This document shows, one piece after another, positions 7,462-59,890 of a stretch of DNA of 64,000 nt. Source of the DNA: Cyanidioschyzon merolae (lineage: Eukaryota); NCBI GenBank assembly GCA_000091205.1, contig AP006496.2; one strand, 5' to 3'. The notes beneath the pieces were generated by a model that ran no database searches, was not told the origin of the DNA, and worked only from the letters and a program-made list of their open reading frames with translations. The translations under genes were made by a program, and so were the position numbers. How positions within the stretch are numbered: the first letter of the stretch is position 1; every line of letters starts with the position of its first letter.

Positions 7462-8460
7462 TTACGGCTGTGCGCGCGCTGTACTCGTTGCAGATACGCA
7501 GGGTCGAACGATAAAAATCACGCCGTCACCGCGCACAAACAGGCGCGAGATGAATCGCTCGCGCAAGTCTGGAGGCCGATCGGGTTGTGACTCCTGCCAG
7601 ATTTCCCGTACATGCTCCATAATGAGGTTAAAGTGCTTATCATAGGCGCGCAGCGTGCCGTAGAGCTTTTTATTATGACGACAGCTCACGAGACACGGCA
7701 CTCGATCGGTGATGCACCGGTCGAGCAGCGTGAACGGTGTTCGCGGCGAGCCGTTTGCGGCATGCACTGCTGGCTTCAGAGCTGACGCAGCGCTTTCGCT
7801 GCTATTCGGAATGCTCTGCGTCGTTGCTGGGGTCGTCGCTGCGATTAGCGTTTGGTAGGATGTCGAAGCTTCTGCTGCAGCGCTGAGCTCTGATGCGGCA
7901 GGCGTTGCCCCAGCTTGATCCAAGTGCGTGTCGTGTGCATCAAGGGGTCTTCGTTTCCGGGGCGCGGTAGGCGGGGCGCTGGCCGGCTCCGCCCAGCGTC
8001 GTTTTCGTCGTTGCGTGGTGGTCGTGCTCTGTGGATACGCGCTAGACTGGATCGGTGACGGCGATAGAGCAGCAGGGTCCAGGGTTTGAGCCAACTTCTG
8101 CTCCTGCTGCTGCTCCTGCTGCTGCTCCTGCTGCTGCTCCTGCTGCTGCTCCTGCTGCTGCTCCTGCTGCTGCTCCTGCTGCTGCTCCTGCTGCTGCGCG
8201 GACGATGTCGTCGTTGCGTCTCCAAGGTTGGTAGCCCGACCAGCTTCTCCCTGTGTGGCTCCAGGCGCGACGCTAGAGTCCTCATCGCGAGCCTCTTGTT
8301 CGAGTTTCACACCTAACAGGTCCAGCAAACGTTTTTGGAGTTCAGCCTTTCTACCGCTGGTTGGAGCTTCTCGCGCGGCAAGCTCCCGACGGAGCTGCGC
8401 CACCGTCAGTCCCGCTACAGCCCCCGCTTCTAAAGCAGTGGGCTGATCAACTGGAGGCAT
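7462..8460 (-). CDS. SAP-domain, Q/E-repeat, C-terminal Sm-like (LSm fold) protein
   Basis: 332-aa ORF with true ATG (plus 8458-8460 = cat). N-terminal SAP motif LTVAQLRRELAAREAPTSGRKAELQKRLLDLLG. Central (QQQE)n run. C-terminal Sm1/Sm2-like segments: RVPCLVSCRHNKKLYGTLRAYDKHFNLIMEHVRE and RLFVRGDGVIFIV. Confidence 0.55.
   Translation of the reverse strand: MPPVDQPTALEAGAVAGLTVAQLRRELAAREAPTSGRKAELQKRLLDLLGVKLEQEARDEDSSVAPGATQGEAGRATNLGDATTTSSAQQQEQQQEQQQEQQQEQQQEQQQEQQQEQQQEQKLAQTLDPAALSPSPIQSSAYPQSTTTTQRRKRRWAEPASAPPTAPRKRRPLDAHDTHLDQAGATPAASELSAAAEASTSYQTLIAATTPATTQSIPNSSESAASALKPAVHAANGSPRTPFTLLDRCITDRVPCLVSCRHNKKLYGTLRAYDKHFNLIMEHVREIWQESQPDRPPDLRERFISRLFVRGDGVIFIVRPCVSATSTARAQP
8096..8200. 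repeat. Imperfect (CTG/CTC)n trinucleotide microsatellite inside the SAP-Sm CDS, encoding the (QQQE)n tract
   Basis: Visible run ctgctcctgctgctgctcctgctg... across about 100 bp. Confidence 0.85.
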
Positions 8461-18934: not shown

Positions 18935-20185
18935 CACCCATGCAAGAGTACGAGTAGGGAGTTCATGGAATACGGGCGTATAGTCTAAAATTTAAATCTC
19001 TTCGAGCAGTCATCAACATCAACCTTTTGAGGGTTTTTCGCAGTGGCTGCTTCCTCTTCATCATTCTCATTTGTGGCTTTACGTACACCGGACTCTGCTT
19101 TCCCACTGGCGCCGTCATTCGCTTTCGCGGGATGTTGATGGTTGCGTTGCATTCCCGATACCGCCGATTCCGGCTGTTGTCGACGCCTCTGATACGTAGA
19201 CGGAAGTTGCGATCTACACTTCGCTTTCCATGTCGATCTTCTTTGGATACAGCCTTAGTGGGCCCTCCGCAGTGATGACACCTGGGTGTTGTCAACTGTT
19301 GCTGTAGGTGCATTGCATATCGCCCTCCGAGTGCTACCCTGTGGCGCTTGAAAGCTTGTTTGACCACTCAGTACATATCCTTGACGGGTACAGATGAGCC
19401 CATACAAATGACCTCCTTCGTTTCAGCGCCCGCTGCCGTACCCCTCGATCACGGACCTGTTCTGGGCGATCCCCTGGTCAAGTACTCTGCCGGCAGCATG
19501 CCCATGCGTATGCTGCTCCATTCGATACGGGATGTGTCATACGCGATATTGTCCATAGTGAAACAAGTACCGGGAGGAGAATCTAGTCCTGGGAGGATTT
19601 CGAGAAATTTCGATCAGTTCGCGCTCCTTTCATGCCACTCGGTGGCATACAGTTCACTGGACGCGATCGCTGCGATGACTAGAGTCCGAGTCCAAGACCC
19701 GCTTTCATGCATACAGAAGTGACGCGAGCCGCTGCGAGCGCACCCATGACAGGTACCATGGTGCTGTGGAGTGCCGTTTCGTTCATAGTTACGAAGAGAG
19801 AGAATGATTTGTCTTCCGAACGGCTTCGATTGTTTGACATGACAAGTTCAGTGAACGTTTGGCATGAGCATCCAAAGCGGCCATCAACGTAAGACGTTGA
19901 GTCTCTTTAATCGTCAATCCGGCCGATCGAAACGGTGCGCCAACGAGCTGCGTTTTAACGGAGAGATCGTGGATTTGAAGCATGCTTGCGCTATGCGTAC
20001 GCCAAACATAAGGAAATGAGAAGCATGCAGGCTTACGCGAATGAATTGGATAATGGTATTCGCTATTTCACGGGAGCTTGTTGGTCGGCATCGCGAAGCG
20101 TCATGATTCCGGTATCGTGACCACGTCCAGTGACAAGGCGTCGTTGGGGTCATTGCGGTACGATGGCCAAGCATCCTAAACCTGC
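18935..20185 (-). mobile_element. Family-2 compact TnpB-like (IS605-OrfB/Fanzor2-like) element, decayed copy E, about 1.25 kb
   Basis: Collinear nucleotide homology over the whole length, aligned by eye, to copies at 33935-35130, 40670-41950, 50878-52150 and 58390-59580. Shared 5-prime terminus (aggtttaggatgc... versus ...ttagggatgcatacg) and shared 3-prime tail (aaattttagactatacgcccg versus aaactttgcatagagtactg / aaactttagtgtataccccg). Coding remnants are split over three frames (track ORFs 19914-20174, 19789-19983, 18963-19367, all minus). Confidence 0.55.
18963..19367 (-). pseudogene. TnpB-like C-terminal remnant of copy E: zinc-ribbon plus RuvC-III-like motif, catalytic Asp lost
   Basis: The 134-aa ORF contains LTTPRCHHCGG (compare TnpB TSQxCSxCG), then SVDRNFRL-RIRG (a degenerate second CxxCG), then NRRYRECNATINIPRK. 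That last segment aligns with TnpB DRDxNAAxNI and with [12 protein letters not shown] of the family-1 Fanzor copy in this window. Confidence 0.5.
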
Positions 20186-20552
20186 TTACGTAACCTTTAG
20201 CCTTTATTGCTGTACTTCGAATCTAGATACTGTACAGCTAGAAAAACTCAAAAAAAGACCACAGGCTGGAACAGATCGTCCACTCTAGTCCTCAGTTTCA
20301 TCTGACACGGGTAGAGTGAAAATCCCATATTCACGTTCGTGCTCACGTCCTAGTCGTCTGGCTGCCGCCAGCTCCGACGCAATCCAAGAGTTGACCTCAC
20401 AAACCTTGCAGAGAAACCGCGTAAGGATCGCGGGCAGAGGAGGACGACCGCTCCCCTGCTGTCGCACGCCGTCGCGGCGTGCTCGCGCCTCGCGTCTCGT
20501 CTGTAAGCGTACTCGTTCTTACAGTGACCGACTCCGTCGAGCATCTGCCAGT

Positions 20553-20744: not shown

Positions 20745-21425
20745 TTTCCAAAGTATGTGAAGTTTTCCGTTGGTATTTGCAAAGTTCTGGGCAGCAGCAG
20801 CAGCAGCAGCAGCAGCAGAATCACGTGCTCACATCCCGATGACCACAAGGAATCGGTCGGCAGTGCTTCCGTCGATGTATCCGGACTCTGCTGACCAGTG
20901 ATGCGCCGCTTTGGATCGTACCGAATGCATGAGACTGCTTTATGCAAATTCTACGCAAAAGATTCATGATTGTACAGATTAGTAGTGGTGCGCCTCTGCG
21001 TTCGGCGAAGGTGCTAGTCACGTCGATGGTGTCATGGTGCAGCAATGGTGCGATCTTTGATCCTATCCATCTCTATATGATAGTATTCAATGATATTCAA
21101 AATGGACCTTCGATCCATTCTACCGTCGCGTTTCCGCGGCGCCTCGTCCATGGGCTTCAACGATGCCGCGCCTGCCTCGGCGATTCGCTCGTACGAGACA
21201 TCTCCGCGAACCCGGTACTTTCTCTATTGAGCTGTGTGTGCCAGACTAGTTCTTAGTGCACTCTTTTTTGCTGTGTATTCATTGTCGTCGGAACCAAGAT
21301 CAGGAATGACCGTGCTGGCTTTCCGAAATTGCTTACCACGCACGCCCTGAGTGCTCGCCCGCGTGGAACAAGCTCGATTTTTTCTGGGGCAAGGCACTCG
21401 TGAGGCCGCTGTTCAGTTGCTTGAG

Positions 21426-33577: not shown

Positions 33578-33934
33578 CAGGTGGGCCCGCGAGCATGAAG
33601 CAACCCACGAATACGTATACACAAACCGCTACTCTGGAGAGCGTCTCGTTAATCAGGACGCTGCAAAGGCACCCCAGGGATCTGCCGAGTCGATGTTCGA
33701 AAAGCCAAGGATAGAGTGGATTCCTGCGAGGCCGACGTACGCCTCAGCGTGTCGGGGCGTGGCGGAGCATAGCCACGTTTGGCGCCACTACCATGGAATG
33801 AAGCCAAAATCCAGCTCCTCCATGTGTCTCAGATTCGAGGAGATCATTGAACTGTTCGTTCTGTTTCCGATTTTGTATTTTTCAGCTCTTGTTTTAGTTG
33901 TACAGCCTTGACATTCAAAGCGTGGCGATGAGAG

Positions 33935-35130
33935 GTTAGGGATGCATACGTCGTTCTAGGATTCGTGGTTGAATTTGTTTTTCGGAATGGCACAGATGAC
34001 CCTCGATCACTGGAATCGGTTACGTCATGCGAATCGTGGTGATTCGCGGAAGCTCGCAAAGAATGGTTCGTAAAATGAGCGACAAAATTAATGGATTCAT
34101 CAATACGGGCCTCTATGAGTCTTTTCTTCTTACGTGTAGCATGTTCAAATCACGCATTCTTCAAGTTTTTTACGGTCTTCCTGGTCCACGGCAACTCGCG
34201 GGTGCAGCTGCTCGCGCGTCGCTCCGGATTACCGCGGATCAAATCGTACAGTCTTGCATTGACGACCGCTGTTCAAGCCTATCCCGAAAGTTGATGGAAC
34301 TTGGCAGGTCGAATAATCGATGCTGTCGAAAAACAAATTCTCCAGTCTTTCTGAATACCCACGAAACTGCATTCCATAGCAGTAGGATACCAGTCGCGGG
34401 ATCTGCTCGCAGCGGCTTCTGTCACTTCTCTTTGCACGGTAAAGCGCCCTGGACTCGCGCTTGCGTCATCGGGGCGATCGCTTCTGGCGGAGAATGCGTC
34501 AGCGCTTTGCGTGAAGGCAGCGCTGTCGGATCGGAGTTTCTCGACTTGATTTCCATCCCGGATTTTCGTCCCGTTCATTGTTTCATCATGAACAACATCG
34601 CGTTCCGACAATCCTCCATGGAATGGAACAGCGTGCGCTTGCGTGCGCAGCTGACGGAAGACTCTCCGAGGATATCTCGCAGATAGAGCTTGTGATCCTG
34701 GGGTACAGCACCGAGCGCGGAAACGGAGTAAAGCATGTAGGGAAACCTTCTCTACCCGTCCAGGGCACGTACCGTGCAGTGAAACATGCGCTCATGTGCC
34801 AGAGAACGGCCGTTGGTAGAGAAAGTATTGCGGATACATTTGGGCACTTGACCTCCACCGAGTGTCACTGCTGCGCAGGACACACCGAGGGTACCATGCA
34901 AAGAAGAAGGCGATGGGAAAAGGATCGCAGATCTCAGCTTCCGTCCGCGCAAGCGATGCATTCCTACCAACCGAACGTGGCGAAACTGGGGCTTGATCGC
35001 TGCGATCAAGCCTCAGTTTCTGCTGCTCTGCAAGGATGAAAAAATAGCTTGAACGTTGCGGTCGTCTACAAAGTGCCAAGTTGCTTCCTGCAGGCACAGC
35101 ATCTAAAACTTTGCATAGAGTACTGACCAG
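33935..35130 (+). mobile_element. Family-2 compact TnpB-like element, decayed copy A, about 1.2 kb, in the SET-gene promoter region
   Basis: 5-prime terminus ...agaggttagggatgcatacgtcgttctaggattcg nearly identical to copy C (aggggcttaggaatgcatacgtagtttccggattctcg). Frame-b remnants ISQIELVILGYSTERGNGVK (RuvC-II-like, Glu retained), TYRAVKHAL and GHLTSTECHCCAGH (TS..C..C zinc finger). The track ORFs 34027-34686 and 34578-35039 are in different frames, so a frameshift is present. Confidence 0.55.
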
Positions 35131-37046
35131 CGCGCTGAACCCGGCAAATGTTCCTGCAGCAGCGCTCCGCGCGGAATCGATACACAGCCGCACGCCATTC
35201 GCCTGCTACTGCGCCTAACCTTCGACCAGAGCAGTGTGTCTATTGTTCGCATGCGAATCACTGCTCGCAGACGGAGAACCTGGTGCAGCATCCCGACTGG
35301 AATCGACGGTCGGACTGCGCGGTGCTGAACCTGCGGGTACAATTTTGTCCGTACATACAGTCCATGGACAAAGCGCGTGTCGTGGAGCGTGCGAGCGCCT
35401 TGACGCCGTCGCGCGCTGGCGAATCAACGTATCCGTTCGTAGGGCTCGGTTGGCCCAGTTCGAGAGTGTTCACTACACGAGGCGAATCGCAGTCTCGGAC
35501 CAGTCGCTGCGTTCGCCAACGCTCGGCCTGGGAATCCGCAGCGACACTGCGACGCCATGCTGTCGCTGGAACGGAGGATCGTGTGGGCGGACCACTATCC
35601 CCGAATCAATGCTTGGATAACGGTAAAGAGGACTGGGAGGATTTGGTGCGCCATGTAGGCTTGCTTCCCGGATGCCGATAACCATCACATCATTGGGGAT
35701 CAGAGGTTAGATTCCAAAATCCTACACCATTAGGAATCACACTCGCGGTCCTGAGCACTTGGTAACCATCCGACACTCGGGGATTCCTCGTTAGATTCAA
35801 CAATGCTCTACCATGACGTCTTCCTATTGCTGGGTTCCGCCTGCGTTCGCCCGGGCGCCTCGCCGTGCTCCAGATGATCGATCATGGCGGAGCGTGCCAG
35901 CTGGAATCATCGCGAGGTATCGTGCCAGGCCCCAATATTACCTTGTGTGTCAAAGGCGGCACCGCGACGCGCACCAGCGACAGAGCCTGCAGCAAGAGAT
36001 TACTCTACGTGAGCTTCCGAGCTACGACACCTGATTTTCGCTGCAGTGCGATGCGAACACGCACGTGCGAGTGCGGGGTGTCGGACACGTGTCCTTCATC
36101 GATCGGTGAGGCGTCTCGCGCGGTGCACGCAGTGCGCTAAGTGAGCGTTCCTGGGAGATCAGGCAGGCATAAGACACGACGCGCGTGCCGCCGCTGAAGG
36201 GAAACGCGATCCTGATCTCTGGTGTGTTGTTCAGCTGTAAAAGTTGTATTCGCGCTGGAGTCGAACAAAAATATAGTTTTCAGTTCGTTTTTGTTTCAAA
36301 CTTCAAACAAGTCTAGTCAAATGTTTTTTCGCAGTATATAACAGAAGGGTTTAAAGAGCGTTCAAGAAATATAAAAATAAAAAAACGGAAAAAGGAACGC
36401 TATGAAAAAGCAAATGCACGATCCTGGAGGCCCAGGTTCGCCGGCTGCCAGAAAAAAATAGTGCCGAGTCCAGAAGAAAAGGAAGAGAAGAAGGACCGAA
36501 AGGCGGAGGTCCTACGTCGAAGGCGGCAAGAAAGACGACTGTACGACGAGATGGTGGTGAAAACCTTTCTTCTTGGACATATCAAGGATCCGTACAGGGA
36601 AAAGTTGCGAGACGCTATCGAAAAACGTGTTGCGTCATACTCCAAGAATATTATAAAGGCGTCGTCAGGACTGATGCATTTAGCAAGGGAGATGTACGAA
36701 GACGTCGCGAACATGGAAACGGTCGAGATTCCAGACGAGTTTTTCGACAAACCTTTATTCGTCAGCTGATGCTTGGCACAGGGGAAGTGCGGAGGGAAAA
36801 TGAGCGGGTGCGCGCCCTCCACGAAAAATATCCCTTTTACAGCTTCAATGGTACTCGATACAAGGGTGACCGGGGTATTTACGGCTACGGGGCGATGAAG
36901 TACCCCACGAACCTGAAGAACCATTTGACAGAGAACTTCGAACGTTTCATGGTACGCGCCGTGTTTGCGCTGTATCCGGACATCTCTCGCAATGGAAAAT
37001 GGGCGATGATCAACGGCATCACGAGCGATCGCAAGCATGAAGATGA

Positions 37047-38618
37047 GGTCGAATTTGTCGACAAGAAAGCGCCAAACGAGAACACGAATGAAGCTTCTGT
37101 AATCCGTGCGGTTATACAAGAGCATCGTGCGGTACTGGGGCTGGCGTATCCAACAGACAAGATATCAGCGTTGAAAAAGATAAGGAAAGATACTATCGCC
37201 TCATCCTGCGATATTTCGTGTTTCTGGACCGAGAGCTCGAACGCAAGGCAGAAACGAAGCTAAGTGAAGGAAAAAATGAAGAGTGGGAGAGACGGAAGGC
37301 TGCCCTAATGGGGAAGCGCTTCGATGTGGTTCCAGTGTGCAAGATCAAGTCACATTTTGTGACTATCGACTCCGGCGTCCTCTACGGCATCATGAGGGAC
37401 ATCAGTCCGGAGTTCAGTGTCAGCAGGGAGAACTTCACCGGCGAAAACCGGGAGACGTACTTGAAGAACATCTCCAATTTCAAACGTCTGAGAGTGAACA
37501 AGCAAAAGTTGTTCACTGGGATGATCGAAACCGATGGAGTAGCCTTGTGTGTACACTATCGGCGGTTGAAGAAAGATCGGCCAGTTCCGCCCTCGGCTGC
37601 GCCCGTGACGAAGGGTGCAGAAAAGAAAGAGGCGGATCCTGAGACGCAGGAGGTGGAGGATAACGACTTTGTCGTTGAAGTGACGAAGGATGAAGATGAG
37701 AAGGAGGCGGATCCTGCGACACAGAAGGTGCAAGATAACGACCTTGTCGTTGATGCGGCGAAGGATGAAGATGAGAAGGAGGCGGATCCTGAGACGCAGG
37801 AGGTGGAGGATAACGACTTTGTCGTTTGCGCGGACCCTGGGAACACGAATATCATCACCATCGCAGCACCGAAGCGTGCGGAAGATGGTACTGATGGTAA
37901 CGTACGTCAGAAAGACATGCGAGTTTTGAGGATCTCGAGAGCGAGATACTATCGAGAATCGGGAATAATGAATGCGAGGAAGAAAATTGCTACATGGAAT
38001 GCAGGAATGAAGGATCACCTGGAAGCTTTGAGTGAGGTGACTAGCCGAAGAGCGGACTTTCAAGCTTTTCGGAAATTCATGGAAGTTTGCATTGTCCATT
38101 GGGATGCACTGTGGGAGGAGTATACCAAGGCCCGGTGGGCTCGTTTGCGTATGAATTTGTATTGTGGGAAGCAGCGGGGGTTCGCGAATTTATTCAATAA
38201 CTTGAGCGCCTTGAAGGAGGATGAAAATCAGAGGCTCGTCGTAGCATACGGAGCAGGGCGCTGGAAGACCCAAAAAGGGACTACTCCAGCTCCAACGACA
38301 AGAACATACAGGGAGTGCGCACGGCGTTTCGTTACGATACCTGTAGATGAGTTCCGAACGTCCTATGCACACCATGAACTGGGTTGTACACTTCAGAGAG
38401 TCGAGATGGAAAAGTGCCAGAGGAGCGCTGAGGAAATAGCAAAGTACGGACCGCTGACGGAGGCGCAAACGGAAAGGAGTGCGAAAGTTCGTGGACTACT
38501 CGCTTTAGTGAGTATAACTCCGGACGGGAAGAAACGTATGGAGTTTGTGAACCGAGATTTTAATGCCGCAATCAATCTACGGAAATGTGCGGTACTGGAC
38601 AAGAGACCTCCAGAGTAG
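37047..38618 (+). CDS. Intact C-terminal about 520-aa portion of the Fanzor/TnpB-like protein containing the split RuvC-like nuclease and zinc-ribbon motifs
   Basis: RuvC-I-like [17 protein letters not shown] (Asp in ADPG, about nt 37824-37845). RuvC-II region [17 protein letters not shown]...TRTYREC lacks the canonical Glu, as reported for Fanzor1 proteins with a relocated glutamate (from memory). RTS zinc-ribbon region [13 protein letters not shown]...EMEKC at about 38355. Ruv[18 protein letters not shown] at about 38550 (TnpB DRDxNAAxNI). Stop at 38616-38618. Confidence 0.7.
37626..37826 (+). repeat. 75-bp (25-aa) tandem repeat x2.7 inside the Fanzor ORF, immediately N-terminal to the RuvC-I motif
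   Basis: Protein repeat [25 protein letters not shown] / [25 protein letters not shown] / [22 protein letters not shown]. The nucleotide unit ggcggatcctgagacgcaggaggtggaggataacgactttgtcgtt... recurs with a 75-nt period. Confidence 0.8.
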
Positions 38619-38750
38619 ACAAGAGAGAACTTTATTGGACAACCTCTCAAAGTCGAACTATATGAGAAAATGTTGGAAGCAGTAGTGGGTGGCCGGTCCA
38701 AAAAGACGGGCAGGCGTCTGCACATCAGTCAGAGACGATTTGTCTAAGGC
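38560..38750 (+). ncRNA. Candidate omega-RNA / right-end region of the Fanzor element (3-prime end of ORF plus about 130-nt conserved tail)
   Basis: By analogy with TnpB/Fanzor systems, the guide-RNA scaffold overlaps the ORF 3-prime end and the transposon right end. This tail (ggacaacctctcaaagtcgaactatatgagaaaatgttggaagcag...ggtggccggtccaaaaagacgggcaggcgtctgcacatcag) is conserved in the second family-1 fragment at 54860-54990, although that copy's coding sequence is destroyed. Confidence 0.3.
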
Positions 38751-39122: not shown

Positions 39123-40669
39123 GGCTGTTCGGAGAAGGACAACGAGCACTGGGTGGCGTCTTGGATGAAAGTCGGCGAGGATGTGTCTAGTTCAAGGCGA
39201 ATGCGGCCTGTGCTGGGAGCACTAGCTAATTCGTATCGCCTACGCGCGGTTCGCTTGGTAATGAACGCCACGAGATAGCAGCGTGAGGTATGCAGCGCGT
39301 TCGACACCCAACGAGAGTGCTCCGAGTGAGCGCGCGCGACCTCTCGAGCTTGTACTGTGGGCACTTGTCGAATTGATATTCGGAGTGGCACGCCGCCACG
39401 CGCATCACTTGGAGATTACTGGTCCTGTGTGGTGATACGTTTCGCATGCCGCTTTGAGTGTAGCGTGCGCCTGTCGAGCGTCCACCGTTCGTAAGGTGTT
39501 GCGCGAGATAAGAGTCCCGCGCATTCCGCCCGCTAGAGCTTGATTATCCGATGATACATGAACGACTAGCTTGTCGAAACGTTAGCGGTAAAGAAGCGAG
39601 TATCTAGCGTACAAGACGCGTGTAGCTTTTCGCTCCTAAACACTGTACGCAGTAAAGAGCGCACGGCTTGGTGTCAGTCTCGAGCGCATGAACGACCACA
39701 GTGTTCTTCGATGGTTTGTGTAAAACTGGGCCCGCCTGAAAGGACAGCGATCTACGACACGATTAGCATCCGCGGACGCCTGGTCAGAGCGATCGGGATG
39801 CCTGTGGAAACGCGTACTTGCCGACGTTTGCAGGCGCTCACGGGCGGCCTCGGTGGCAGGGGCGAAGATCGAGCCCCTGCATCGATGATGCGTCATGCTT
39901 CTCTGCAGACGATTTAGATGCAGTCAAATGGGACTCGGCATCGAAACTGTCGTTACCTGCTGACTAGGTTGCCACAGCACGTAAGCAAACCTGCCGGCAA
40001 CCCCGGTGTGCGCCTTGCCGCGAGTGCTCACTTTTGAATGACTGCTGCGAGCCTGTGTTCGCTACAGGGCGCGACTACCCAGAGTCGCCCGGCACCAGTG
40101 CGTGTGCTCGTGACGACAGCAGCGCTGAACGCAGGTGATTGAGATTTGCTTACCTACCGGCTCGCTGAGCACATCGATTCACTGGACATGCGCGAACGAA
40201 GAGCTTTTCACGTGAAGCTACCATATCTCCCTGAGCGGATATGGCTTTCTGTCTGGACTGTGCAGAGGCAGCGGCGCCAAGTACGTTGCACTCGGATGCT
40301 CGCACGCTGCTGTTGCAACGCTGCAGGCACGCCAGAACTGCCACTACGGAGATACAGCATGCGATGCGCGGTTCTCGATACGTCCGATGATGACGCAGTT
40401 GTAGGTATCGCCCAGAACACGTGGTGGCTTTCCGAGCTCAGTCCATCGTCATGCTCCAGTGCGCATGGATTATCATGCAGCCGGGAGCCATAAAATGGAG
40501 CGCGAGACTGCGATGAACGCTTGCTACAGTGCTGAATGTGTTGCCACTGTCGCCGCACGGAAACAGCGCAAGTCGTCGTGTCGATGCTGGGGCCCACACG
40601 AAAGGCCGGATCGTAATGCGAGCGAGCGCAGCCCCGCGTTAGATGGTTAAACACATGTCAGACTAGAAT

Positions 40670-41950
40670 GGAACAGGTACACTATCTCGGCTGCGCACTC
40701 TCAAGCCTGGACATGTCGTCAAGGTCATCAATATTAGCCGTCGTGGGCTTTTTCAGCAACAGCTTCCTCTTACCCTCCATAAACTCCGGCATTCAATTCG
40801 CTGGCCTCTTGCGTCCTTCCCGTTTCGTTGTTTGCTGTCGATTGATGCTGATGCCAGCCATACTGTGCCGATATCGCTGCTTCCGTCTGGTGTCAACGTA
40901 TTTCGTGCACAGACGCAAGTTGCGATCCAAATTCGTTTGTCTGTTGCACCCACTATGTCTAGTGCACCGGTGCACCCTGCGCAGCGATGTCCATTGACTG
41001 CAGTCAGATACGCAGATATGTCCACAGCGCCTACTTCTCCAAGTGCCACGCTGGGGCGCGTGAACGCTCGCTTCGTCCATTGGTGCTCGTCGGCGACGTG
41101 TAGAGAGGGCCTAACTGTTTGCGCTTATCTGTTTTCATGCCCAATACCGTACCCTGCGCTCACGGGCCTCTTCGGGGTGTTACCCAAAGCGAACTTGGTG
41201 CACGTCGCACACGCAAGCGATCGCTCTTCCATTCTTTTGAGGATTTGTGGAAATCGATTTTGTTCATAGTAGAGAGAGTTTCGGAAGGAAATGCACGCTG
41301 ATCAACAAGATATGAAATTTTGATCCGTCTTCACTTCCTTCGTGCAGAGCGCCGATGCATGATCCACGGGAAGCGATCCCAGCGATGACTAGAGTCCCAG
41401 GCCAAGACCTTTTTCCACGCAAAAAGAAGAAACGGGAGCCACTGGGAAGTTTCCTCCTGAGAGGGATCATATTGGTGCTGTCGAATCCGGCCTCGTCGAT
41501 AGACATGAGCGGAGGCGAATTTGCCTTTGTAACGAAATCGAGTATTGCACTCGAGCAGTTCAGTGAACATTCAGCAGGAGCGCGTGAACAGAACATCAAC
41601 GGACAATGTCGAGCTTTTCCCTTTCGTATTGCTGGCCCCACACCTTGCCTCGAAACGGAAAGATCAGAACCATGAAGAATATGTGATTTGAGAATGCAAA
41701 CTGTAGGAAAACGAGAAGACTCGAAACCTATAGATATGCACTGGATTCAAAAGTCGGTCAGCGGGGGAACCCATGTTCGAGGGCGTCGCGAATCATCTCG
41801 ATTCCGGTGCCATATCGAAATCCAGCGGCAAAATCCTTGGAGGAGCCATTCCGAATAACCAAAATCCACGAAAATCCTCGAACTCCATAGGAATTCGTAA
41901 CCTCTTTTCGCCGCTCTTTTCCATCTAGAGGCTATGCATCGAAAAATCCT
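40670..41950 (-). mobile_element. Family-2 compact TnpB-like element, decayed copy B, inverted orientation, about 1.28 kb
   Basis: The reverse complement is collinear with copy A: ...gtcatcgctgggatcgcttcccgtggatcatgcatcggcgctctgcacgaagg versus A gtcatcggggcgatcgcttctggcggagaatgcgtcagcgctttgcgtgaagg; tactatgaacaaaatcgatttccacaaatcctcaaaagaatggaagagcg versus A catcatgaacaacatcgcgttccgacaatcctccatggaatggaacagcg. The 3-prime tail aatattgatgaccttgacgacatg matches E gatgttgatgactgctcgaagag. A small insertion lies near the 5-prime end (about 41900). Confidence 0.5.
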
Positions 41951-42199
41951 TCGAAACGAAATCACAAGGCGGAAACAGCGCGAGCACTACGGTATTCCCT
42001 TTTCGTTCGACGCGCCCTTAGGGAAATACCCTACCGAGCGCGCAGCGCTGCGCTGCGCACGAGCACCAACGCACCAGAAAGCCTAGAGACGCACGGCGCG
42101 TCAAAGCGCCGTATACGATGCTATGCGCATCGCTGCACCACTCGTGGCGCTTTTCTGGTCTGGAGCCGAGGCACGAGGTGCACACTTCCGACCTCGAAG

Positions 42200-43096: not shown

Positions 43097-44348
43097 AGGC
43101 GCAGCAGCAGCAGCAGCAGCAGCAACCCGCCTTGCGCATTTGGCGACGATTCACGAAACGAGATGATTGGGGCCGACGGCCTCTGCGTTCACGAAAAGGC
43201 AGCGGAAAGGCTTTGCAAGGTCATGCAAAAGCACAAACCAACCCGGCATCGGTCGGAATCTCTTGGACCGAGACACTGCCAAAAGATGATAGCATACGTG
43301 CGTCCCACAGGTTGCGTTCCGTGCGCAAAATGGGCGTCACAGCGGCGTGACGTGTCTAGGATACCGCAGCGCTGTAAACCAGATCAACGCTGAGTCAATA
43401 GATGCGAGCGCGGCTCTCACGAGTGGACATGTCTCGGCGCTCGCTCGAGACAGACACCATGATACGACAAATTGCGCAGGGACAGGAAAGCGATGCGCTC
43501 GTGCTCGTTGTGTTTCGAGCACTGGCTTTGAATCAACATAGTGGAAGGAAGCTCGAACGAGAGGTTTCGTGCTAACACATTCGGGTCCGAATGGAAACAC
43601 ACAGCGCTTCATCCGTGCGCCGGCGCCTCCACAGGTACAAACTTGCATCAACAACCTTTTCGAGTCTCGCCTCTGCAAGGCGCGATGCATCGATGAGCGT
43701 TTCGTATGGATCATGCGCACCGTTACCCAGTTTCGCGCCTCTTTTTCGCTGTCGAGTCCGGCTCAGATAGCGTTTTGATGAGACAATCAAGTGCTTCCCG
43801 TGAACATTCCCAAGGCAACGGATATAATGTAACAGCACTTGAAGACCACGGGTTTCATCTGGCGGGACGACGCGTTGCTGAGGCGCGTTCGTGTCGACTG
43901 GGACCATGGGCAGCGTTCCCAAGGCGCCGGCGAAAGGTCCCGGTATTGCATTGGTGCAAGCCTTGCCGCCCGCAGAGGGGTCAGAACGGACGAGACTTGT
44001 TCACAAAACGTTTCAGTCATCGCCGGGACAACCACTGCGATATGATAACTCTTGGTTGCCGTCGGAATCTCGGGCCGCACGCAATTAAGCTACAACAGCA
44101 GGAACGCAAACTGCCACGTGCGTCGCTGATGGCAATCTGGGACTTGCGCATTTTTCGCAAGCCGTGCCCTTGCGTACCGTCTGCATGTACTGCAGGCATG
44201 CAGGTTTCGCGGTCTTCGCCGCACCACCACCAGCAATACACAGTCATCATGTGCCGGGTCGGAGACGCAAACAAGGTCACGTTATGACGCAAGCAGCGCT
44301 CTGGAGCTTCCTGCTGCGATCCGCAGCGGGAACAAGACCAGACCCATC

Positions 44349-49601: not shown

Positions 49602-50877
49602 AGGTCGCTCTGTATTGCTAAAATAGCCGTCCGGAGATTGTGAACCCAATGCGCTTGCACGGGAATTCAGGCCGTGTACTGGAGGACAGTGCGTGGCATC
49701 GCTTGCAAGAGTACATTGCCTCGGCTAGGGCGTCGCTAGCGCCTTGCTGGTGCATGGTACGCACGATCGGTGCAAGTGACGTACATCGGCCGACAGCAAC
49801 GTAGCCCTGAAAGTGCAGTAGTTCGCGCGTCCTGCATATAGAGCGCTAGTCGGGAACCTCTCCTGTTATCGTATCTGGGTAGCGGATCGCTCCATACGCG
49901 TGTTCGTGGAAAGCACCTCTTCGAGATTCAGCGCTTCTTTCTGACAAAGGAGATGAGTCCGTTGCTTGCAATGGATGCCCAATGCTCTATGCGAAAAATT
50001 TGCAGGGATTTGCGTATGCGCGCGCTGGCGACCCATGTCCAGCACACTCCTATGCAAGACGACTTGCGTTCGTGTTTCAGACTAGTCCTGTATCAGGTAC
50101 AAAGGAGCAGCAGCGACAGCACTGCAACGTACTTGCCTCAGCGAACGGTTGTGGTCAGCGCAGAGCCTCAGTAACGACGCAACGAGTAACGATGACGCTA
50201 GTTTCTCGCGGTGGTGATTCGTTTGCTTCAGTACGGGCATACCGTAGCGAGCGGTTCAGTCGTAGTATCTGGTGATCTTCTCGCCAAGGCCCGAACAACT
50301 TCAGTCAAAGCACGTTGACTGTAATCTCTCTGAGCAGCTGCGCTTGCGGCATTCCTCGCGTCCATGGTAGTCTCTCAGTGCGTGCAACGCTTCTGGATTG
50401 CCTGCAACCGATATAACGTAGACGCTCGCGTCCTATCACCCGCCATGACCCAGACGTCTTCATACAAACGGAATCCTATCCTCATCATTGCGCTGCTTGT
50501 GCGGTTCCCGAACGCGGGGTCGTGTATTTTCCAAGTGCTGTTTCCGATGCCACGCTTTGCATGAGCTTGAGTGCCGACGCATTACTGTGTTGCTTCTTCC
50601 TGTCCCGTTAAGCATCGCTCGGGTGAATGCGAGCAGGTGGCTTTTGACCGACGCGTGTGCATATATGCGACGTTTCATGGTATAACGCGGGTCCGTCAGG
50701 TGCGCTGCCTATGCGTCAGCGCGCGTGACAAGTCAGCGCGTACCCGATAGACGATCCAGCTTCACCTGTGCGACATAAAAATGGAACACTGAACTGCTCG
50801 CTCTGTTCAAGCACCTTGATCATTTTTCCGAACTTGCTAAGATATGCGTACGCGGGATGCAAAGCCCAGCAATAGGG

Positions 50878-52150
50878 GCTTAGGAATGCATACGTAGTTT
50901 CCGGATTCTCGATCAGGGTTTCAAAGTTGAGTCTTCGACGCTTTGCCTTTGGCATTCGATGCGTCATCAGAATGATGATGATTCTCGAAGCACGTGAACA
51001 GGGCTTTGTAAAGTAATCGACATTATTGTCCACTGCATACGTACAAGTATTCAATCTTCTCATGCCCTGATGTGGAACATGCGCAAATCACGATTGCTTC
51101 GAGTTTTCGATTTTTCTGGTTCGAGGCAAGTCGTGGGCGCAGCCATGCGTATCGTTGCATTGACGACGAAAGAAGAAACGTGATGTTGTCCCGTAATGAC
51201 TTGTTCATACGCTCATGTCGAAATTTCATGAAACATGTCACTTCATTCGATGATAGACTTTGTTAGAAATACGAATACTCTAGTCTCTGTGGTCATCGAC
51301 GAAACTGCATTCGATACCTGCACAATACTTCTCATGGGATATGCTCCCAGAGGCTCCTATGTCTTCAGAGTGCGCCGAAAATCCGCTTGGGATCGGACTT
51401 ATCCTAGTGACCGCTTCCAGTCGAGAGGGCGTCACCGGTTTGCACGAAGAAAGCCCAGACGGTTCGCCAACCCTCGACTTGATCTCTAGCCCGGATTTTC
51501 ATTCTGGTACATGTTTCACTGTCGATAAAATCTGGTTCCGTCAATGCCTTATGGAATGGGAAAGCACGGGCTCGCGCGTGCGACGGACAGGGTACTCCTC
51601 CGGGGGATCACGCAGACGACGACTATATTCGCAGTACATTGCATCGGGTGCTTCGAGCGAGCAGGGCAAAGATGGAAGACGTCTGTGCCCGTCGAGTGCA
51701 GGTACCGAGCCGTGAAGCAAGTATTGGCGTACCATAGGCCGGACCTTGCAGGAGTCATTGTGATGAACATACGTGAAAACCTGACAACAATCAAGTGTCA
51801 CCTGAACAAGAGGCACACCGAGCTGTTTACAACGACAATGAGCATCGCAAGTGAGGTGTAGATCGAAACGGCCCCCGCAATGCATAGAGTGATTTGATAA
51901 CAGATAGAATCAGGGGAATCGGGTCTTCAATGCCGTCATCGACATCCTTTGACTGCTGGCAACGGAGCTGGAGGCAAATGCAGAGACCGATGTATTCAAG
52001 GCGGAAGCGAAGCGCGACGAGAAGGAAGCATTCACGGAACCAGCCCACTTACGTTGGTATCGATGATACTGGGAGGAGGTCAGAGCTTTGGGGTGAACGC
52101 CCGAGTCAGACGACCCTTTCCATGTTACCCTACCATGGACTCAGGAAAAC
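50878..52150 (+). mobile_element. Family-2 compact TnpB-like element, decayed copy C, about 1.25 kb
   Basis: 5-prime terminus cttaggaatgcatacgtagtttccggattctcg (compare copy A). Remnants in several frames: SCIDDERRNV / RNTNTLVSVVIDETAF (N-terminal region, versus A SCIDDRCSS / KTNSPVFLNTHETAF), PVECRYRAVKQVLAYH, ENLTTIKCHLNKRHTE (zinc-finger remnant) and NRVFNAVIDIL-stop (RuvC-III-like, at about 51917-51950). Confidence 0.5.
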
Positions 52151-52589: not shown

Positions 52590-54149
52590 CTAGCAGCATT
52601 CTGCAGCATCAATCGCTGCACTCGTACTCCCAGAAGTGACCGTTTCATCGCCTCGCTCACACAACGAGCATCTGGGCTGCTGCTGCTGCTGCTGCGGCGG
52701 CGGCGGCGGCGGCGGCGGCGAGCTCTTTGCGAACAGAATCGACATCATCCCTTTCCGCTTCCAATAAAGAATCCCCATCATCAAAAATCCAGCACCGAGG
52801 ACCAGCGAGACGGCAACGACGACAAACCACGGCCAGGAGGGAGCCGTTTCCTCATAGGCTGGAATCGCAATGTTCATTCCGAAAAAATCCGCCGGAATCA
52901 GCATTATCAGGATCGTACAGAACCACAGATGACAGCTGATGTTCACTGTCCATAGCCGAGTCTGTTTCGCTGCGAGCGCAATCACTGTCAGTTCTTCAAT
53001 GTTGTGCAGCTGCTTCCGCAAGGCAGCTGCAGACATTTCATGATCATGGCACTGCCATAGCGCCCATTCAATCAGCGTGTAGACGCTCTCTTGAGTCGAG
53101 GCAAATGATGCCCGCATCCCAGCGTCATCGCCGGGGATGCACTCTCCGACCCAGGCTGCGACGGTTTCCGCAATACCGTCGTCGAGGCTCTCCTCCAGGC
53201 AGACACGGAGGTTCCGGGCTCGCAGCGCTACGAGTGCCACTTGTCGTGCTGCGCCTTGTAAAAGCCGCGGAGCCGCGGACTTTTCCACGGTATTGATGTG
53301 CAGTTGGCCGTGCTGCAGCTGCTGTTTGATCCACTGCAGCTTGCGCTCATTCGACTGAACGCAGGTATGGAGCATCGCTGCAAGGGCACGAAATCCAAAC
53401 GCCTCTCCTGGATCTGTTTCTGGCCCCGTGAGCCGACCAGACACCATTCGATGCAGGATGCGAGCATGCTCGCAGTCGAAATCCTGTATCAGCAGGCGTT
53501 CGGGTTCCAGAACAGCGCAGAGATGACGATGAAGCGCTGCGATGATCATACGGGGTCGAACTCGAATGGTCGGCTGCATCTGGTACACCGGCATGAAAAG
53601 TCGACGATCCACCGAATGGATGAAGATGTTTCGAATCTCTGCGCCTGATGCGCTCGAGTTTGAGTGGGGTATCCGCGTCGTCGTCCTCTTCGTCTTTGCC
53701 GTCGCTGAAGCTATACAGCATTCGTCATTGCGACATGGATCTTTTGAGCTGTACGCTGAGCACGAAAGCGTTTCGTAATGTTCGCGCGCGCCTTGCTTGC
53801 TTTCGACTCGACCGGCTCGAGGAACGCGATGCTCCGCGAACATACACAGACCGGCGCACGGCTGCGTCTCGCAGTAACATGTTCGCGACCAGATGACCTG
53901 TCCCTGATAGCCCGACGCTCTGTATTCGTGAAATCGATAGTTGAGCACGAGCAGTGCCTCCTGGCCGACGGCAGAGAGCCCCGAAACTCCGCCAGGGAAA
54001 GCGCCGGCACTCGCGAGCGTCTCGACGGAGCTGGCGAGTCGACTCGCTGGATTCTGCGCTATGCTCCGCAGAGGCCCAGACTCGAGACCATCGAAGATCG
54101 TTTTCCGCGGCTTGTTCTCTGACGCTGCAGTGAACCGCCGCTGAGGCAT
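52590..54149 (-). CDS. CorA/MRS2-family Mg2+ transporter
   Basis: C-terminal two-TM core with the diagnostic GMN motif: LWFCTILIMLIPADFFGMNIAIPAYEE...WPWFVVVAVSLVLGAGFLMMGILYWKRK, followed by a P/Q-rich tail. Full ORF from true ATG at 54149. The first about 185 aa are Cys/Ser-rich and could be a presequence or non-coding, with an alternative in-frame ATG at 53594. Confidence 0.65.
   Translation of the reverse strand: MPQRRFTAASENKPRKTIFDGLESGPLRSIAQNPASRLASSVETLASAGAFPGGVSGLSAVGQEALLVLNYRFHEYRASGYQGQVIWSRTCYCETQPCAGLCMFAEHRVPRAGRVESKQGAREHYETLSCSAYSSKDPCRNDECCIASATAKTKRTTTRIPHSNSSASGAEIRNIFIHSVDRRLFMPVYQMQPTIRVRPRMIIAALHRHLCAVLEPERLLIQDFDCEHARILHRMVSGRLTGPETDPGEAFGFRALAAMLHTCVQSNERKLQWIKQQLQHGQLHINTVEKSAAPRLLQGAARQVALVALRARNLRVCLEESLDDGIAETVAAWVGECIPGDDAGMRASFASTQESVYTLIEWALWQCHDHEMSAAALRKQLHNIEELTVIALAAKQTRLWTVNISCHLWFCTILIMLIPADFFGMNIAIPAYEETAPSWPWFVVVAVSLVLGAGFLMMGILYWKRKGMMSILFAKSSPPPPPPPPQQQQQQPRCSLCERGDETVTSGSTSAAIDAAECC
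52675..52721. repeat. (GCT)n(GCG)n compound trinucleotide repeat encoding the poly-P/poly-Q tail of the CorA-like protein
   Basis: gctgctgctgctgctgcggcggcggcggcggcggcggcg read directly. Confidence 0.85.
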
Positions 54150-54534: not shown

Positions 54535-54990
54535 AAACTTACGGGAATGGAAGTGAAGGATCCTGGAGGCCGTCATCGCCGGATGCCAGAGAAAAAGGAC
54601 GAAAATTTCGATCTTCTCGCCGACCATCGAGGGAGAAGTGCAAGTGACGAAGAAGAAGAAGAACAGGGTAGGTAGATGACAAAAGATGTTTGTCCGACAG
54701 GATGATGACGAGACTGTAGTCGAATAGAGGCCACGAGTTCTGGCAATCCTTGCGATGGTGAGTTCAACCAGAGGCAATGCACGCATGGAGATCGTGAACT
54801 TTGACTTTAACGCCACCATCAATACCAGACGATGTGTGGTGCTGAAGACGACTGCTGACGATATGAGGCCATCTATGTTTGTTGGGAAACCTCTCAGATG
54901 CGAAGTGTGCTAGGAGAAACTGAAAACGGCTGCAGGCGGCCAGTCAAAAAAGGCCGGGAGGCGTCTGAGAGGGAGTATATTTCTTTACAC
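54535..54990 (+). mobile_element. Family-1 (Fanzor1-like) 3-prime-terminal fragment, degraded: C-terminal coding remnant plus conserved 3-prime tail
   Basis: The frame containing ...AILAMVSSTRGNARMEIVNFDFNATINTRRCVVL...stop (54911-54913) aligns with the intact copy [34 protein letters not shown]. An upstream in-frame stop and frame changes are present (VIAGCQRKR versus ELGCTLQRV; RMPEKKDEN versus [10 protein letters not shown]). The tail ggaaacctctcagatgcgaagtgtgctaggagaaactgaaaacgg...ggcggccagtcaaaaaaggccgggaggcgtctgagagggag matches 38640-38745 of the intact element. AT-richer than the flanks. Confidence 0.55.
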
Positions 54991-58389: not shown

Positions 58390-59580
58390 CCCGGCGATGC
58401 CGAGATACATCCTCATTTGTCTGTGACGCAGTCCTGAAACCTTACTGGTATTCGCTGCCACCGGTTACCTACAGGCAGCGTTTGGCACTAGCAGACGCAG
58501 CCGCGGATGCACCCACCCTGCAAATATGATCTTTTTTTGACTGGCAGAACGTTTATAGGAACTGGGTGTCCGATTGTGCGATGTGGATCGGCAGCACAGA
58601 TGCAAACATCGTAGAGAGCGGCGACTTGGACGAGGCGCACTCTTCGACGAACGGTGAACAGGTGCGTGCAACAGCCATCTCACTACACTGTAAGAAAGAA
58701 ACGCACCAGGTGGAGTAACTTGGATGTAAAGAATAATGTATGGGTCTCTTTCCAAAGTCGTGAACAGCAGCCTGTTCGGAATTTTCGTGCGACTGTTTCG
58801 CTTTCCGGTCTGCGATATCCGATTTTTACTACGGGGTCTCTCCTTTCCTTCCAGCTCTGTTGCTCGCAGTCAAAGAATACTGATTTCAGCGTTAGGGTCC
58901 CGACTTCACTGCTTCGAGGTGTGGTCGACGCATATTGTCCCCAGTCGGAAGCTTCAATCTAAGCTTCAGCTGCCGTTTCGGTCCTCTGCCGTAGACAGCG
59001 ACGGTGCGCTCTTCGCATCGATAACCCTTGACTGTGCTTAGGGGTTGTTGTTCGTGCACCGCAACCACTCTTTCGACGGGGTCACCCTGGAGAATCCCGT
59101 GATCGTGGAATACTGTACCATGTGCGAAACGAAGCATGGCATCGAGACGAGCCTTGTGTACCCATCAACCGCATGCACCGAGCGATGCAGCAAGCGTTCA
59201 GGCGTCATAGACCGGACCTCGGACGCCGAGAAGCGGTGAACATACCCGACAATCTGACCATAGTCAAGTGTCACCGAGGCAAAATGCGCACCGATCAGTC
59301 TACAAATAAGATAAGAATGGCAAGCGAAGCGCACATTCCAACGACCACCTATGCATACCCTGTGTTGACAACAGCCAGAATTAGGGAAATCGCGACTTTC
59401 ATGCTATCATCAGCATCTTTTTCTGCGTATAACAATGCTGGGGCCAAGGAGAAACCTGCGAAATGAAAGCCGGAGTTAAGACAAAGGACAAGGGAGCATT
59501 CGCAGAACTTGCCCACAAATGCTTGTGCTGGTTACACGTAGAAAAGACCCAAACTTTAGTGTATACCCCGAGTTAGCCAG
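58390..59580 (+). mobile_element. Family-2 compact TnpB-like element, decayed copy D, about 1.2 kb
   Basis: Collinear with copies A, C and E. Examples: ggagtaacttggatgtaaagaataatgtatgggtctctttccaaagtcg versus A ggaacttggcaggtcgaataatcgatgctgtcgaaaaacaaattctcc; zinc-finger remnant DNLTIVKCHRGKMRTDQ; RuvC-III-like NRDFHAIISI with Asp retained (about 59385-59415). 3-prime tail aaagacccaaactttagtgtataccccgag versus E aagagatttaaattttagactatacgcccg. Confidence 0.5.
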
Positions 59581-59890
59581 GCATCCCTGTTTCGGTCTTG
59601 TCTGACATGGATGTAGTATTCTGGAGTATCTACGCTCTGAATCCGAGCAGAGCGTTGCAAACTGTCAAACGAAAAAAATGTCGCCGTGTCAGAGCGCAAC
59701 CCCTGCCGGGGCGCGTGTCTCGCAGAGAGGGCGGCGCGAGCGCACTGCTTCCATTGGCGTGGCGTTTTCTCTACCACGTGTCTGAGCGCTTGCACGCACT
59801 GCATCCACCCTGCACTTTGCTGCACTTGTAGTGCTCGTTTTTCTTCGAATTGCAATGCGCTTTCTTTGTCCAAATAAGCTCTCGTTGCAA

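Follow-up and report, generated by a model that had tools for sequence, protein, structure and literature searches.

A repeat family of Cyanidioschyzon merolae joins a remnant of a DDE_3 transposase to the C-terminal end of a Fanzor1 gene

The 134-aa open reading frame (ORF) at positions 18963..19367 on the minus strand of the Cyanidioschyzon merolae DNA analyzed here is a chance-open stretch of an ancestral Fanzor1 reading frame, i.e., the C-terminal stub of a decayed gene. It lies in copy E of a short repeat family, here called family 2, whose tail is derived from the end of a Fanzor1 gene that encodes the zinc ribbon and RuvC-III, and whose 5' part originates from a DDE_3 transposase. TnpB is an RNA-guided RuvC nuclease, and Fanzor1 is its homologue in eukaryotes. 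Family 2 is very probably a non-autonomous internal-deletion derivative of a Tc1/mariner-type element carrying Fanzor1, of which copy E is a dead member that decayed neutrally. Copy E is a real but ordinary transposon fossil that reveals no new mechanism; the association of Fanzor1 with Tc1/mariner elements is itself already published, and family 2 adds another case.

The window, i.e., the whole stretch of 64,000 nucleotides that was analyzed (contig AP006496.2, assembly GCA_000091205.1), contains six copies of family 2:

18935..20311, minus strand: copy E, a complete unit of 1377 bp, delimited by nhmmer and a MAFFT alignment with 13 other copies, its ends taken from the TIR alignment
33850..35140, plus strand: copy B, full, with approximate ends and a diverged 3' end
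40650..41990, minus strand: copy C, full, with approximate ends and the 3' TIR at 40650-40674
50763..52110, plus strand: copy D, full, with the 5' TIR at 50763-50787 (4 mismatches to the consensus)
59056..59613, plus strand: copy F1, partial (3' part only), with TA directly after the 3' TIR at 59589-59613; LCIPC and NRDF are retained
58660..59099, minus strand: copy F2, partial (3' part only), joined head-to-head with F1

These six copies and eight segments from metagenome contigs (about seven independent copies) were combined into a 14-copy majority consensus. The metagenomic segments came from Cyanidiales contigs that had been gathered via proteins of the CMe-1A family and scanned by nhmmer, plus locus L002, one further copy found in a metagenome scan with a single consensus; all of them show the family's unit of ca. 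1.33-1.38 kb. Pairwise DNA identity among the window copies is 60-68%, and copies are 70-76% identical to the 14-copy consensus. Every copy contains stops, and most contain frameshift codons as well, the set of substitutions differs from copy to copy, and none of the copies contains a complete ORF of 400-800 aa. The similarity detected by tblastx between copies extends to all reading frames, which points to neutral decay of the family. The parts of copy E are as follows:

18985..19530, minus strand: remnant of the last ca. 180 Fanzor1 codons with two in-frame stops, located by a Fanzor1 HMM and tblastn, with the ancestral stop mapped
19524..19536, minus strand: deletion junction, at which the transposase frame "..MDNIAFHKS" passes into out-of-frame Fanzor1 "..QRALARAAD.."
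19530..20237, minus strand: remnant of an IS630/Tc1-type transposase with start Met, HTH region and the first two catalytic Asp motifs (consensus IDETAF and MDNIAFHKS)
20287..20311, minus strand: 5' TIR, in sense orientation CCCGTGTCAGATGAAACTGAGGACT, with one base lost; TA flank at 20312-20313
18935..18990, minus strand: 3' untranslated end, containing the decayed remains of a subterminal palindrome together with the 3' TIR, whose outer end is at 18935; flank TT rather than TA

The Fanzor1 ancestry of the tail is seen with an HMM for which 20 published Fanzor1 proteins (supplement of PMC3627910) each contributed their last 90-190 residues. On this HMM the majority consensus scored 39.1 bits when made from four copies, 37.1 bits from six and 83.4 bits from 14 (E 8e-28), and all other frames of the consensus scored 0 or less. 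Null maxima were 2.7 bits for 300 DNA shuffles in six frames and 8.7 bits for 1000 protein shuffles, the latter value coming from shuffles of the 4-copy consensus. The Pfam profile PF07282 (Cas12f1-like_TNB, formerly OrfB_Zn_ribbon) likewise matches the 14-copy consensus with 30.2 bits and thereby passes its gathering threshold (GA) of 26.3, under which the 6-copy (24.9 bits) and 4-copy (21.9 bits) versions remain. The Fanzor C-terminal motif has been described as [TS][TS]-x-x-C4 zinc finger-x(5,50)-RD (Bao & Jurka 2013, PMC3627910), and the consensus tail matches it in full as LTTVKCHRC..(23 aa)..CMKC..(9 aa)..RD. Only the last ca. 150 codons of the family are Fanzor-derived; the remnant mapped in copy E up to the junction spans ca. 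180 ancestral codons. The RuvC-I Asp (DPG/DLG strand), sought 125-275 residues upstream of the zinc finger, is absent, and the region in question is transposase-derived.

A protein search with the 14-copy consensus led to two separate kinds of intact protein in environmental sequence. Previous queries had been less productive: when the 4-6-copy consensus was used in a k-mer-filtered search, the sole match was a metagenomic duplicate of copy B, and a search with the CMe-1A ORF of the window found CMe-1A copies only and no diverse Fanzors. The first kind are Fanzor1 relatives, namely P0123 (551 aa), P0124 (376 aa, carrying PF07282) and P0126 along with the partial proteins P0125 and P0131. P0123, P0124 and P0126 are 46-56% identical to the family-2 tail over ca. 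150 aa, and tblastn places P0124 (19394..19074, E 4.5e-11) and P0123 (19569..19023, E 2e-13) on copy E's own DNA. All three are complete ORFs with RuvC-I, unlike family 2, and the motif GLDPGRVNLY of the intact relatives precedes the start of family-2 similarity by ca. 100-115 residues. Their residues N-terminal of ca. 300 (P0123) or ca. 196 (P0124 and P0126), including this motif, have no match in the window copies or the consensus. In P0123 and P0126, unlike in family 2, a long insert separates the two CxxC pairs.

The second kind are DDE_3 transposases, and the 5' ca. 700 bp of family 2 correspond to the N-terminal two-thirds of such an IS630/Tc1-type protein. P0127 (39% identity) and P0130 (30%) match this part from their first residues to "MDNIAFHKS", with the alignment covering residues 1-256 of P0127. 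Pfam DDE_3 matches the 14-copy consensus with 36.7 bits (GA 28.6, E 4.6e-9), the match spanning positions 3-117 of the 146 in the profile; upstream of it, HTH_33 and HTH_Tnp_Tc3_2 match weakly at the expected place. Already the middle part of the 4-copy consensus scores 29.7 bits against DDE_3 (GA 28.6), in a frame that differs from that of the tail. The remnant ends before the transposase's third catalytic residue, and the region that would contain it is deleted.

Both parts meet at consensus nucleotide 862, i.e., ca. position 19530 of the window in copy E, and this junction is identical in all full-length copies, including those on other contigs. P0127 and P0130 run on past this point with "..PPYSPWFNPIKNV", and the intact Fanzors read "RLGQRALARAAD" at the counterpart of the junction, residue ca. 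315. We had considered the stretch after "FHKS" as the "YSP" block of the transposase and "SVPV..YRAVKQAF" as its C-terminus; both assignments were rejected, as another frame of the same DNA is near-identical to intact Fanzors (QRALARAAD..KPVIVGYGTGRGNGGGH..PSVPVK.MYRA.K).

The unit is bounded by TIRs of 25 bp with the consensus TA followed by CACCCGTGTCAGATAAAAATGGAAC, obtained by aligning 5' ends to reverse-complemented 3' ends (more than 15 termini). The TIRs emerged only from this many-copy end alignment and were invisible to an inverted-repeat scan of single copies. TA abuts the TIR at most readable ends (the 5' end of copy E, copies F1, G, H, I, M and N, and also L014, a locus with an intact Fanzor gene), and the flank is mutated in several copies, to TT at the 3' end of copy E and the 5' end of copy D. 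Just inside the outer TIR of the 3' end lies a second TIR-like copy in opposite orientation, and the two form a consensus hairpin of ca. 23 bp with a minimum free energy of -41.2 kcal/mol (z -3.3). It is partly kept in single copies, with 55% of cells paired compared to 33-39% in shifted-register controls. No covariation was seen in this hairpin across the copies, and an Rfam search of the copy E region gave no match. The ca. 60-nt 3' untranslated region with the subterminal palindrome and the TIR is conserved between family 2 and L014, where this right end (palindrome and terminal GGTG followed by TA) begins 33 nt past the Fanzor stop. On the 7.8-kb contig of L014, no left TIR was detectable and no adjacent transposase was present; L015, the locus of an intact transposase relative, is located at a contig end.

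The common junction, the common strand and order of the two parts, the right end shared with an intact Fanzor locus and the published precedent of Fanzor1 genes inside Mariner/Tc1 elements all argue for a single parent element. Such a parent would have had 25-bp TIRs, inserted at TA and carried the gene of an IS630/Tc1-type DDE transposase at its 5' side and a Fanzor1 gene at its 3' side. An internal deletion would then have taken the 3' third of the transposase gene together with the 5' two-thirds of the Fanzor gene, leaving the remainders joined out of frame. The defective unit would have been mobilized in trans and dispersed before decaying neutrally. A full-length parent with both genes between family-2 TIRs was not recovered among the sequences gathered.

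One addition to this model would be compatible with it and supplement it, namely that the derivative succeeded by keeping the 3' end of the Fanzor gene together with the right end (in Fanzor and TnpB systems, the region that encodes the guide omega/fRNA scaffold) and spread as a hitchhiker serviced in trans by transposase and Fanzor. fRNAs have been placed at the 3' ends of Fanzor ORFs, from where they reach towards the right end (PMC10530073), the 3' untranslated region with its palindrome and TIR is common to family 2 and L014, and the predicted hairpin is in part retained in the copies. However, retention of both ends is obligatory for any non-autonomous TIR element, and the position of deletion breakpoints may be arbitrary. 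Neither covariation nor an Rfam match accompanies the hairpin, and in the four full-length window copies, the 3' region is no better conserved than the remainder. We consider this addition unlikely. Its stronger form, in which family 2 would keep a Fanzor guide-RNA module "on purpose" and defective copies would be recognized, homed or retained by Fanzor in trans, is likewise improbable; if true, family 2 would parasitize an RNA-guided transposon system as a eukaryotic "guide-only" element.

The ORF of copy E and its motifs are located as follows:

18963..19367, minus strand: ORF of 134 aa with GTG start in the ancestral Fanzor frame, opening just 3' of an internal TGA stop
19269..19280, minus strand: first CxxC of the zinc ribbon, CHHC, intact; LTTPR directly before it corresponds to the [TS][TS]-x-x part of the motif
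19185..19196, minus strand: site of the second CxxC, RIRG in copy E (CGT ATC AGA GGC), consensus C-M-K-C
19131..19157, minus strand: RuvC-III motif RECNATINI (consensus RDFNAAINI), with GAA (Glu) as the codon of the catalytic Asp at 19152-19154

The ORF is present letter for letter as an earlier note on this DNA had quoted it. It reads past the ancestral Fanzor stop and ends at a stop codon of its own a few bases inside the 3' TIR. The note had proposed to check it by profile search as a TnpB C-terminus, and on its own the ORF matches nothing in Pfam-A or NCBIfam (E ≤ 10); on the Fanzor1 C-terminal HMM it scores 7.6 bits, a value equalled by 4 of 2000 shuffles. The note had nevertheless correctly recognized a TnpB-type zinc ribbon followed by RuvC-III, with several residue details in need of revision; the source is, more specifically, a eukaryotic Fanzor1. 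The intact first CxxC is found as described, and the linker that had been called conserved (SVDRNFRL, 19197-19220) is indeed kept in the family consensus and has its counterpart "DRDFRVC" in intact relatives. The second CxxC is mutated, as had been claimed, through changes of TGC to CGT (Cys to Arg) and of TGC to GGC (Cys to Gly), so that of the C4-RD motif copy E retains only TT-PR-CHHC, with R..G as the second pair and RE in place of RD. The reported replacement of Asp by Arg, in contrast, stemmed from an alignment shifted by three residues; copy E has Glu instead of the RuvC-III Asp (GAC to GAA).

Copy E had also been singled out for the best-preserved tail, which holds within the window when ranked without F2 (too little of its tail is covered): its amino acid identity to the 14-copy consensus is 58% compared to 45-47% for B, C, D and F1, with two stops and zero frameshift codons. 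The tails of copies H and I on other contigs are equal or better. Residues lost in copy E are kept by other copies that have lost others: the second CxxC is intact in F1, J and N2 and reduced to its first Cys in H, and the RuvC-III Asp is kept in F1, F2, G, H and J as well as in the consensus.

These details bear on the proposal that family 2 as a whole is derived from TnpB and that copy E represents a TnpB C-terminus inactivated by Asp-to-Arg exchange, with meaningful changes of its active site. Its tail truly belongs to the TnpB superfamily, and the second CxxC and the catalytic Asp are altered in copy E. TnpB derivation is thus upheld for the 3' third of the family; it fails for the 5' two-thirds, which are a DDE_3 transposase remnant in a unit with Tc1/mariner-type TIRs and TA in most readable flanks. 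The exchange is to Glu and not to Arg, the ORF opens directly behind an in-frame stop and by itself finds no Pfam match, and RuvC-I is missing together with the entire N-terminal part of the Fanzor. What had been called a textbook inactivated active site is random pseudogene decay: because stops occur in all copies and frameshifts in most, and with substitutions that differ by copy, we attribute the active-site changes to neutral decay and not to designed inactivation. Altogether, we regard this proposal as very unlikely. Nothing in copy E is expected to function today, and its Cys-to-Arg, Cys-to-Gly and Asp-to-Glu changes are drift.

Another alternative is that the master copy encoded a natural fusion of an IS630/Tc1-like transposase with a TnpB-like zinc-ribbon C-terminus. 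This would fit the direct adjoining of both parts on one strand in every copy and the overlap of local alignments in the two frames for ca. 22 codons. However, the consensus frames of the two parts differ, and the transposase frame soon meets stops ("..SPRRSP*S*") that are common to most copies. The intact transposases P0127 and P0130 go on with PPYSP..NPI(E/K)NV and have no zinc ribbon there, the intact Fanzors have N-terminal ca. 200-315 residues of their own with RuvC-I, and the transposase part of family 2 lacks its third catalytic residue. Among 8000 candidates, there were zero intact proteins in which DDE_3 was followed by an in-frame TNB/RuvC-III tail, and we consider such a fusion very unlikely.

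Finally, a chance likeness to TnpB, arising from the Cys- and Arg-rich translation of GC-rich decayed DNA, is refuted: the ORF alone lacks a Pfam or NCBIfam match and phmmer searches of consensus pieces against PDB sequences returned only noise, but the 14-copy consensus matches the HMM with 83 bits where shuffles, made from the 4-copy version, never exceed 8.7 bits, Pfam TNB lies above threshold, identity to intact Fanzors is 46-56% over 150 aa and P0124 matches the DNA of copy E itself.

The closest known systems to the internal-deletion derivative are PUl-1, PUl-4 and PGv-1, Mariner/Tc1 elements that carry Fanzor1 genes and show duplicated TA target sites (Bao & Jurka 2013, PMC3627910); the Fanzor1c clade has been associated with Mariner/Tc1 as well (Jiang et al. 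2023, PMC10530073). Family 2 resembles these elements in its TIRs and TA flanks, in the arrangement of transposase 5' and Fanzor1 3' on one strand and in the C-terminal motif of its consensus. However, they measure 3.4-3.8 kb, whereas family 2 is only a deletion derivative of ca. 1.38 kb, decayed and non-coding, from which the transposase's third catalytic region and, on the Fanzor side, the N-terminal two-thirds with RuvC-I are missing. Its host is a red alga, from which the 2013 survey (PMC3627910) reported only the unrelated CMe-1A family.

CMe-1A is a Fanzor1 family of C. merolae with ca. 150 copies and a 3169-bp consensus without TIRs, to which genomic copies are ca. 80% identical (PMC3627910). 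It shares with family 2 the superfamily, one identical 10-residue motif and the presence of copies in the window, where positions 36402-38744 are occupied by a near-complete CMe-1A Fanzor1 element (77% amino acid identity to the published CMe-1 protein). However, CMe-1A has neither TIRs nor a transposase, whereas family 2 has TIRs and a transposase remnant, and CMe-1 has lost the zinc-finger cysteines while the family-2 consensus retains C4. We rejected family 2 as a fragment of CMe-1A, given that tblastn with CMe-1 gave no match to family 2 (E ≤ 10) and that its identity to the tail consensus is 25%. With prokaryotic TnpB (IS200/IS605, e.g., ISDra2), the family-2 tail shares the (R)DxNAAxNI RuvC-III motif and the C4 zinc ribbon, and PF07282 matches the consensus. 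It is nonetheless of Fanzor1 type, with the C-terminal signature VIVGYGxG...PVK..YRA...ERPxYL, and belongs with a DDE cut-and-paste transposon and not with a Y1 or serine TnpA.

For the annotation of this locus, the result is a correction from a TnpB family whose active site was dead by design to a Tc1/mariner-Fanzor1 composite relic. Family 2 constitutes a second Fanzor1 lineage for a Cyanidioschyzon-type red-algal genome that is mariner-associated and distinct from CMe-1A, and intact relatives bearing its right end are still present in environmental sequence. These findings can help to annotate transposable elements and to follow the movement of Fanzor genes along with cut-and-paste transposons. 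One MITE survey reportedly found zero MITEs in Cyanidioschyzon merolae. The window has a GC content of ca. 57% and contains intron-poor eukaryotic genes, including those for Hint, an oxysterol-binding protein, tubulin, FancD2, Ofd1, RWP-RK, SET, BT1 and DUF3177.

According to the P-MITE survey, Cyanidioschyzon merolae is the sole exception among the plants examined, all others having MITEs (PMC3964958). However, the window holds around six copies per 64 kb of family 2, a 1.38-kb element with terminal inverted repeats (TIRs) that combines a 5' DDE_3 transposase remnant with a 3' Fanzor1 tail, which shows that non-autonomous TIR elements do occur in a Cyanidioschyzon-type genome. Further elements in the window and in two metagenomic loci are the following:

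36402-38744, + strand: near-complete copy of CMe-1A, the published C. merolae Fanzor1 element (77% amino acid identity to its protein, CMe-1)
54710-54976, + strand: second, C-terminal CMe-1A fragment (49% identical)
L002:3822-5456 (contig Ga0078972_1002969): family-2 copy
L014 (JGI 3300035702, contig Ga0399894_004485): gene-dense locus, 7757 bp, GC 0.557

The closest intact Fanzor1 protein, P0123, is encoded on L014, where the neighboring genes encode an RNA ligase, one 2H-SAK and one Peptidase_S74 protein; this locus may derive from a virus or another alga. As called, the P0123 open reading frame looks N-terminally truncated because the in-frame sequence upstream is still Fanzor1-like. The intact locus and the decayed family 2 have a right-end palindrome in common (L014:7225-7283). 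In all family-2 copies, this palindrome is subterminal, the outer TIR being faced by a TIR-like copy that lies further in (18935-18990 in copy E, the unit with the 134-aa reading frame). The palindrome may offer the transposase a second binding site or belong to a Fanzor guide-RNA/right-end structure.

In the L002 copy, consensus nt ~495-610, which surround the first catalytic Asp, are tandemly duplicated internally, and the second CxxC, i.e., the second zinc-ribbon Cys pair of the Fanzor tail, is intact (LCIKC). Two 3' parts of family 2, the partial copies F1 and F2, lie head-to-head (inverted) at 58660-59613 and meet at ~59056-59099, an arrangement that could be a product of aberrant transposition or rearrangement.

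The near-complete CMe-1A copy carries a tandem-duplicated internal insert of ~50 aa, with a stretch of 12 residues repeated, and a single stop close to its end. The assignment of the window to a Cyanidioschyzon-like alga is based on this CMe-1A match. Short trinucleotide microsatellites (GCT/CAG-type) are common to several loci in the window (~8096-8197, 20791-20820, 43101-43124 and 52676-52701), the second of them ~480 bp from the 5' end of copy E.
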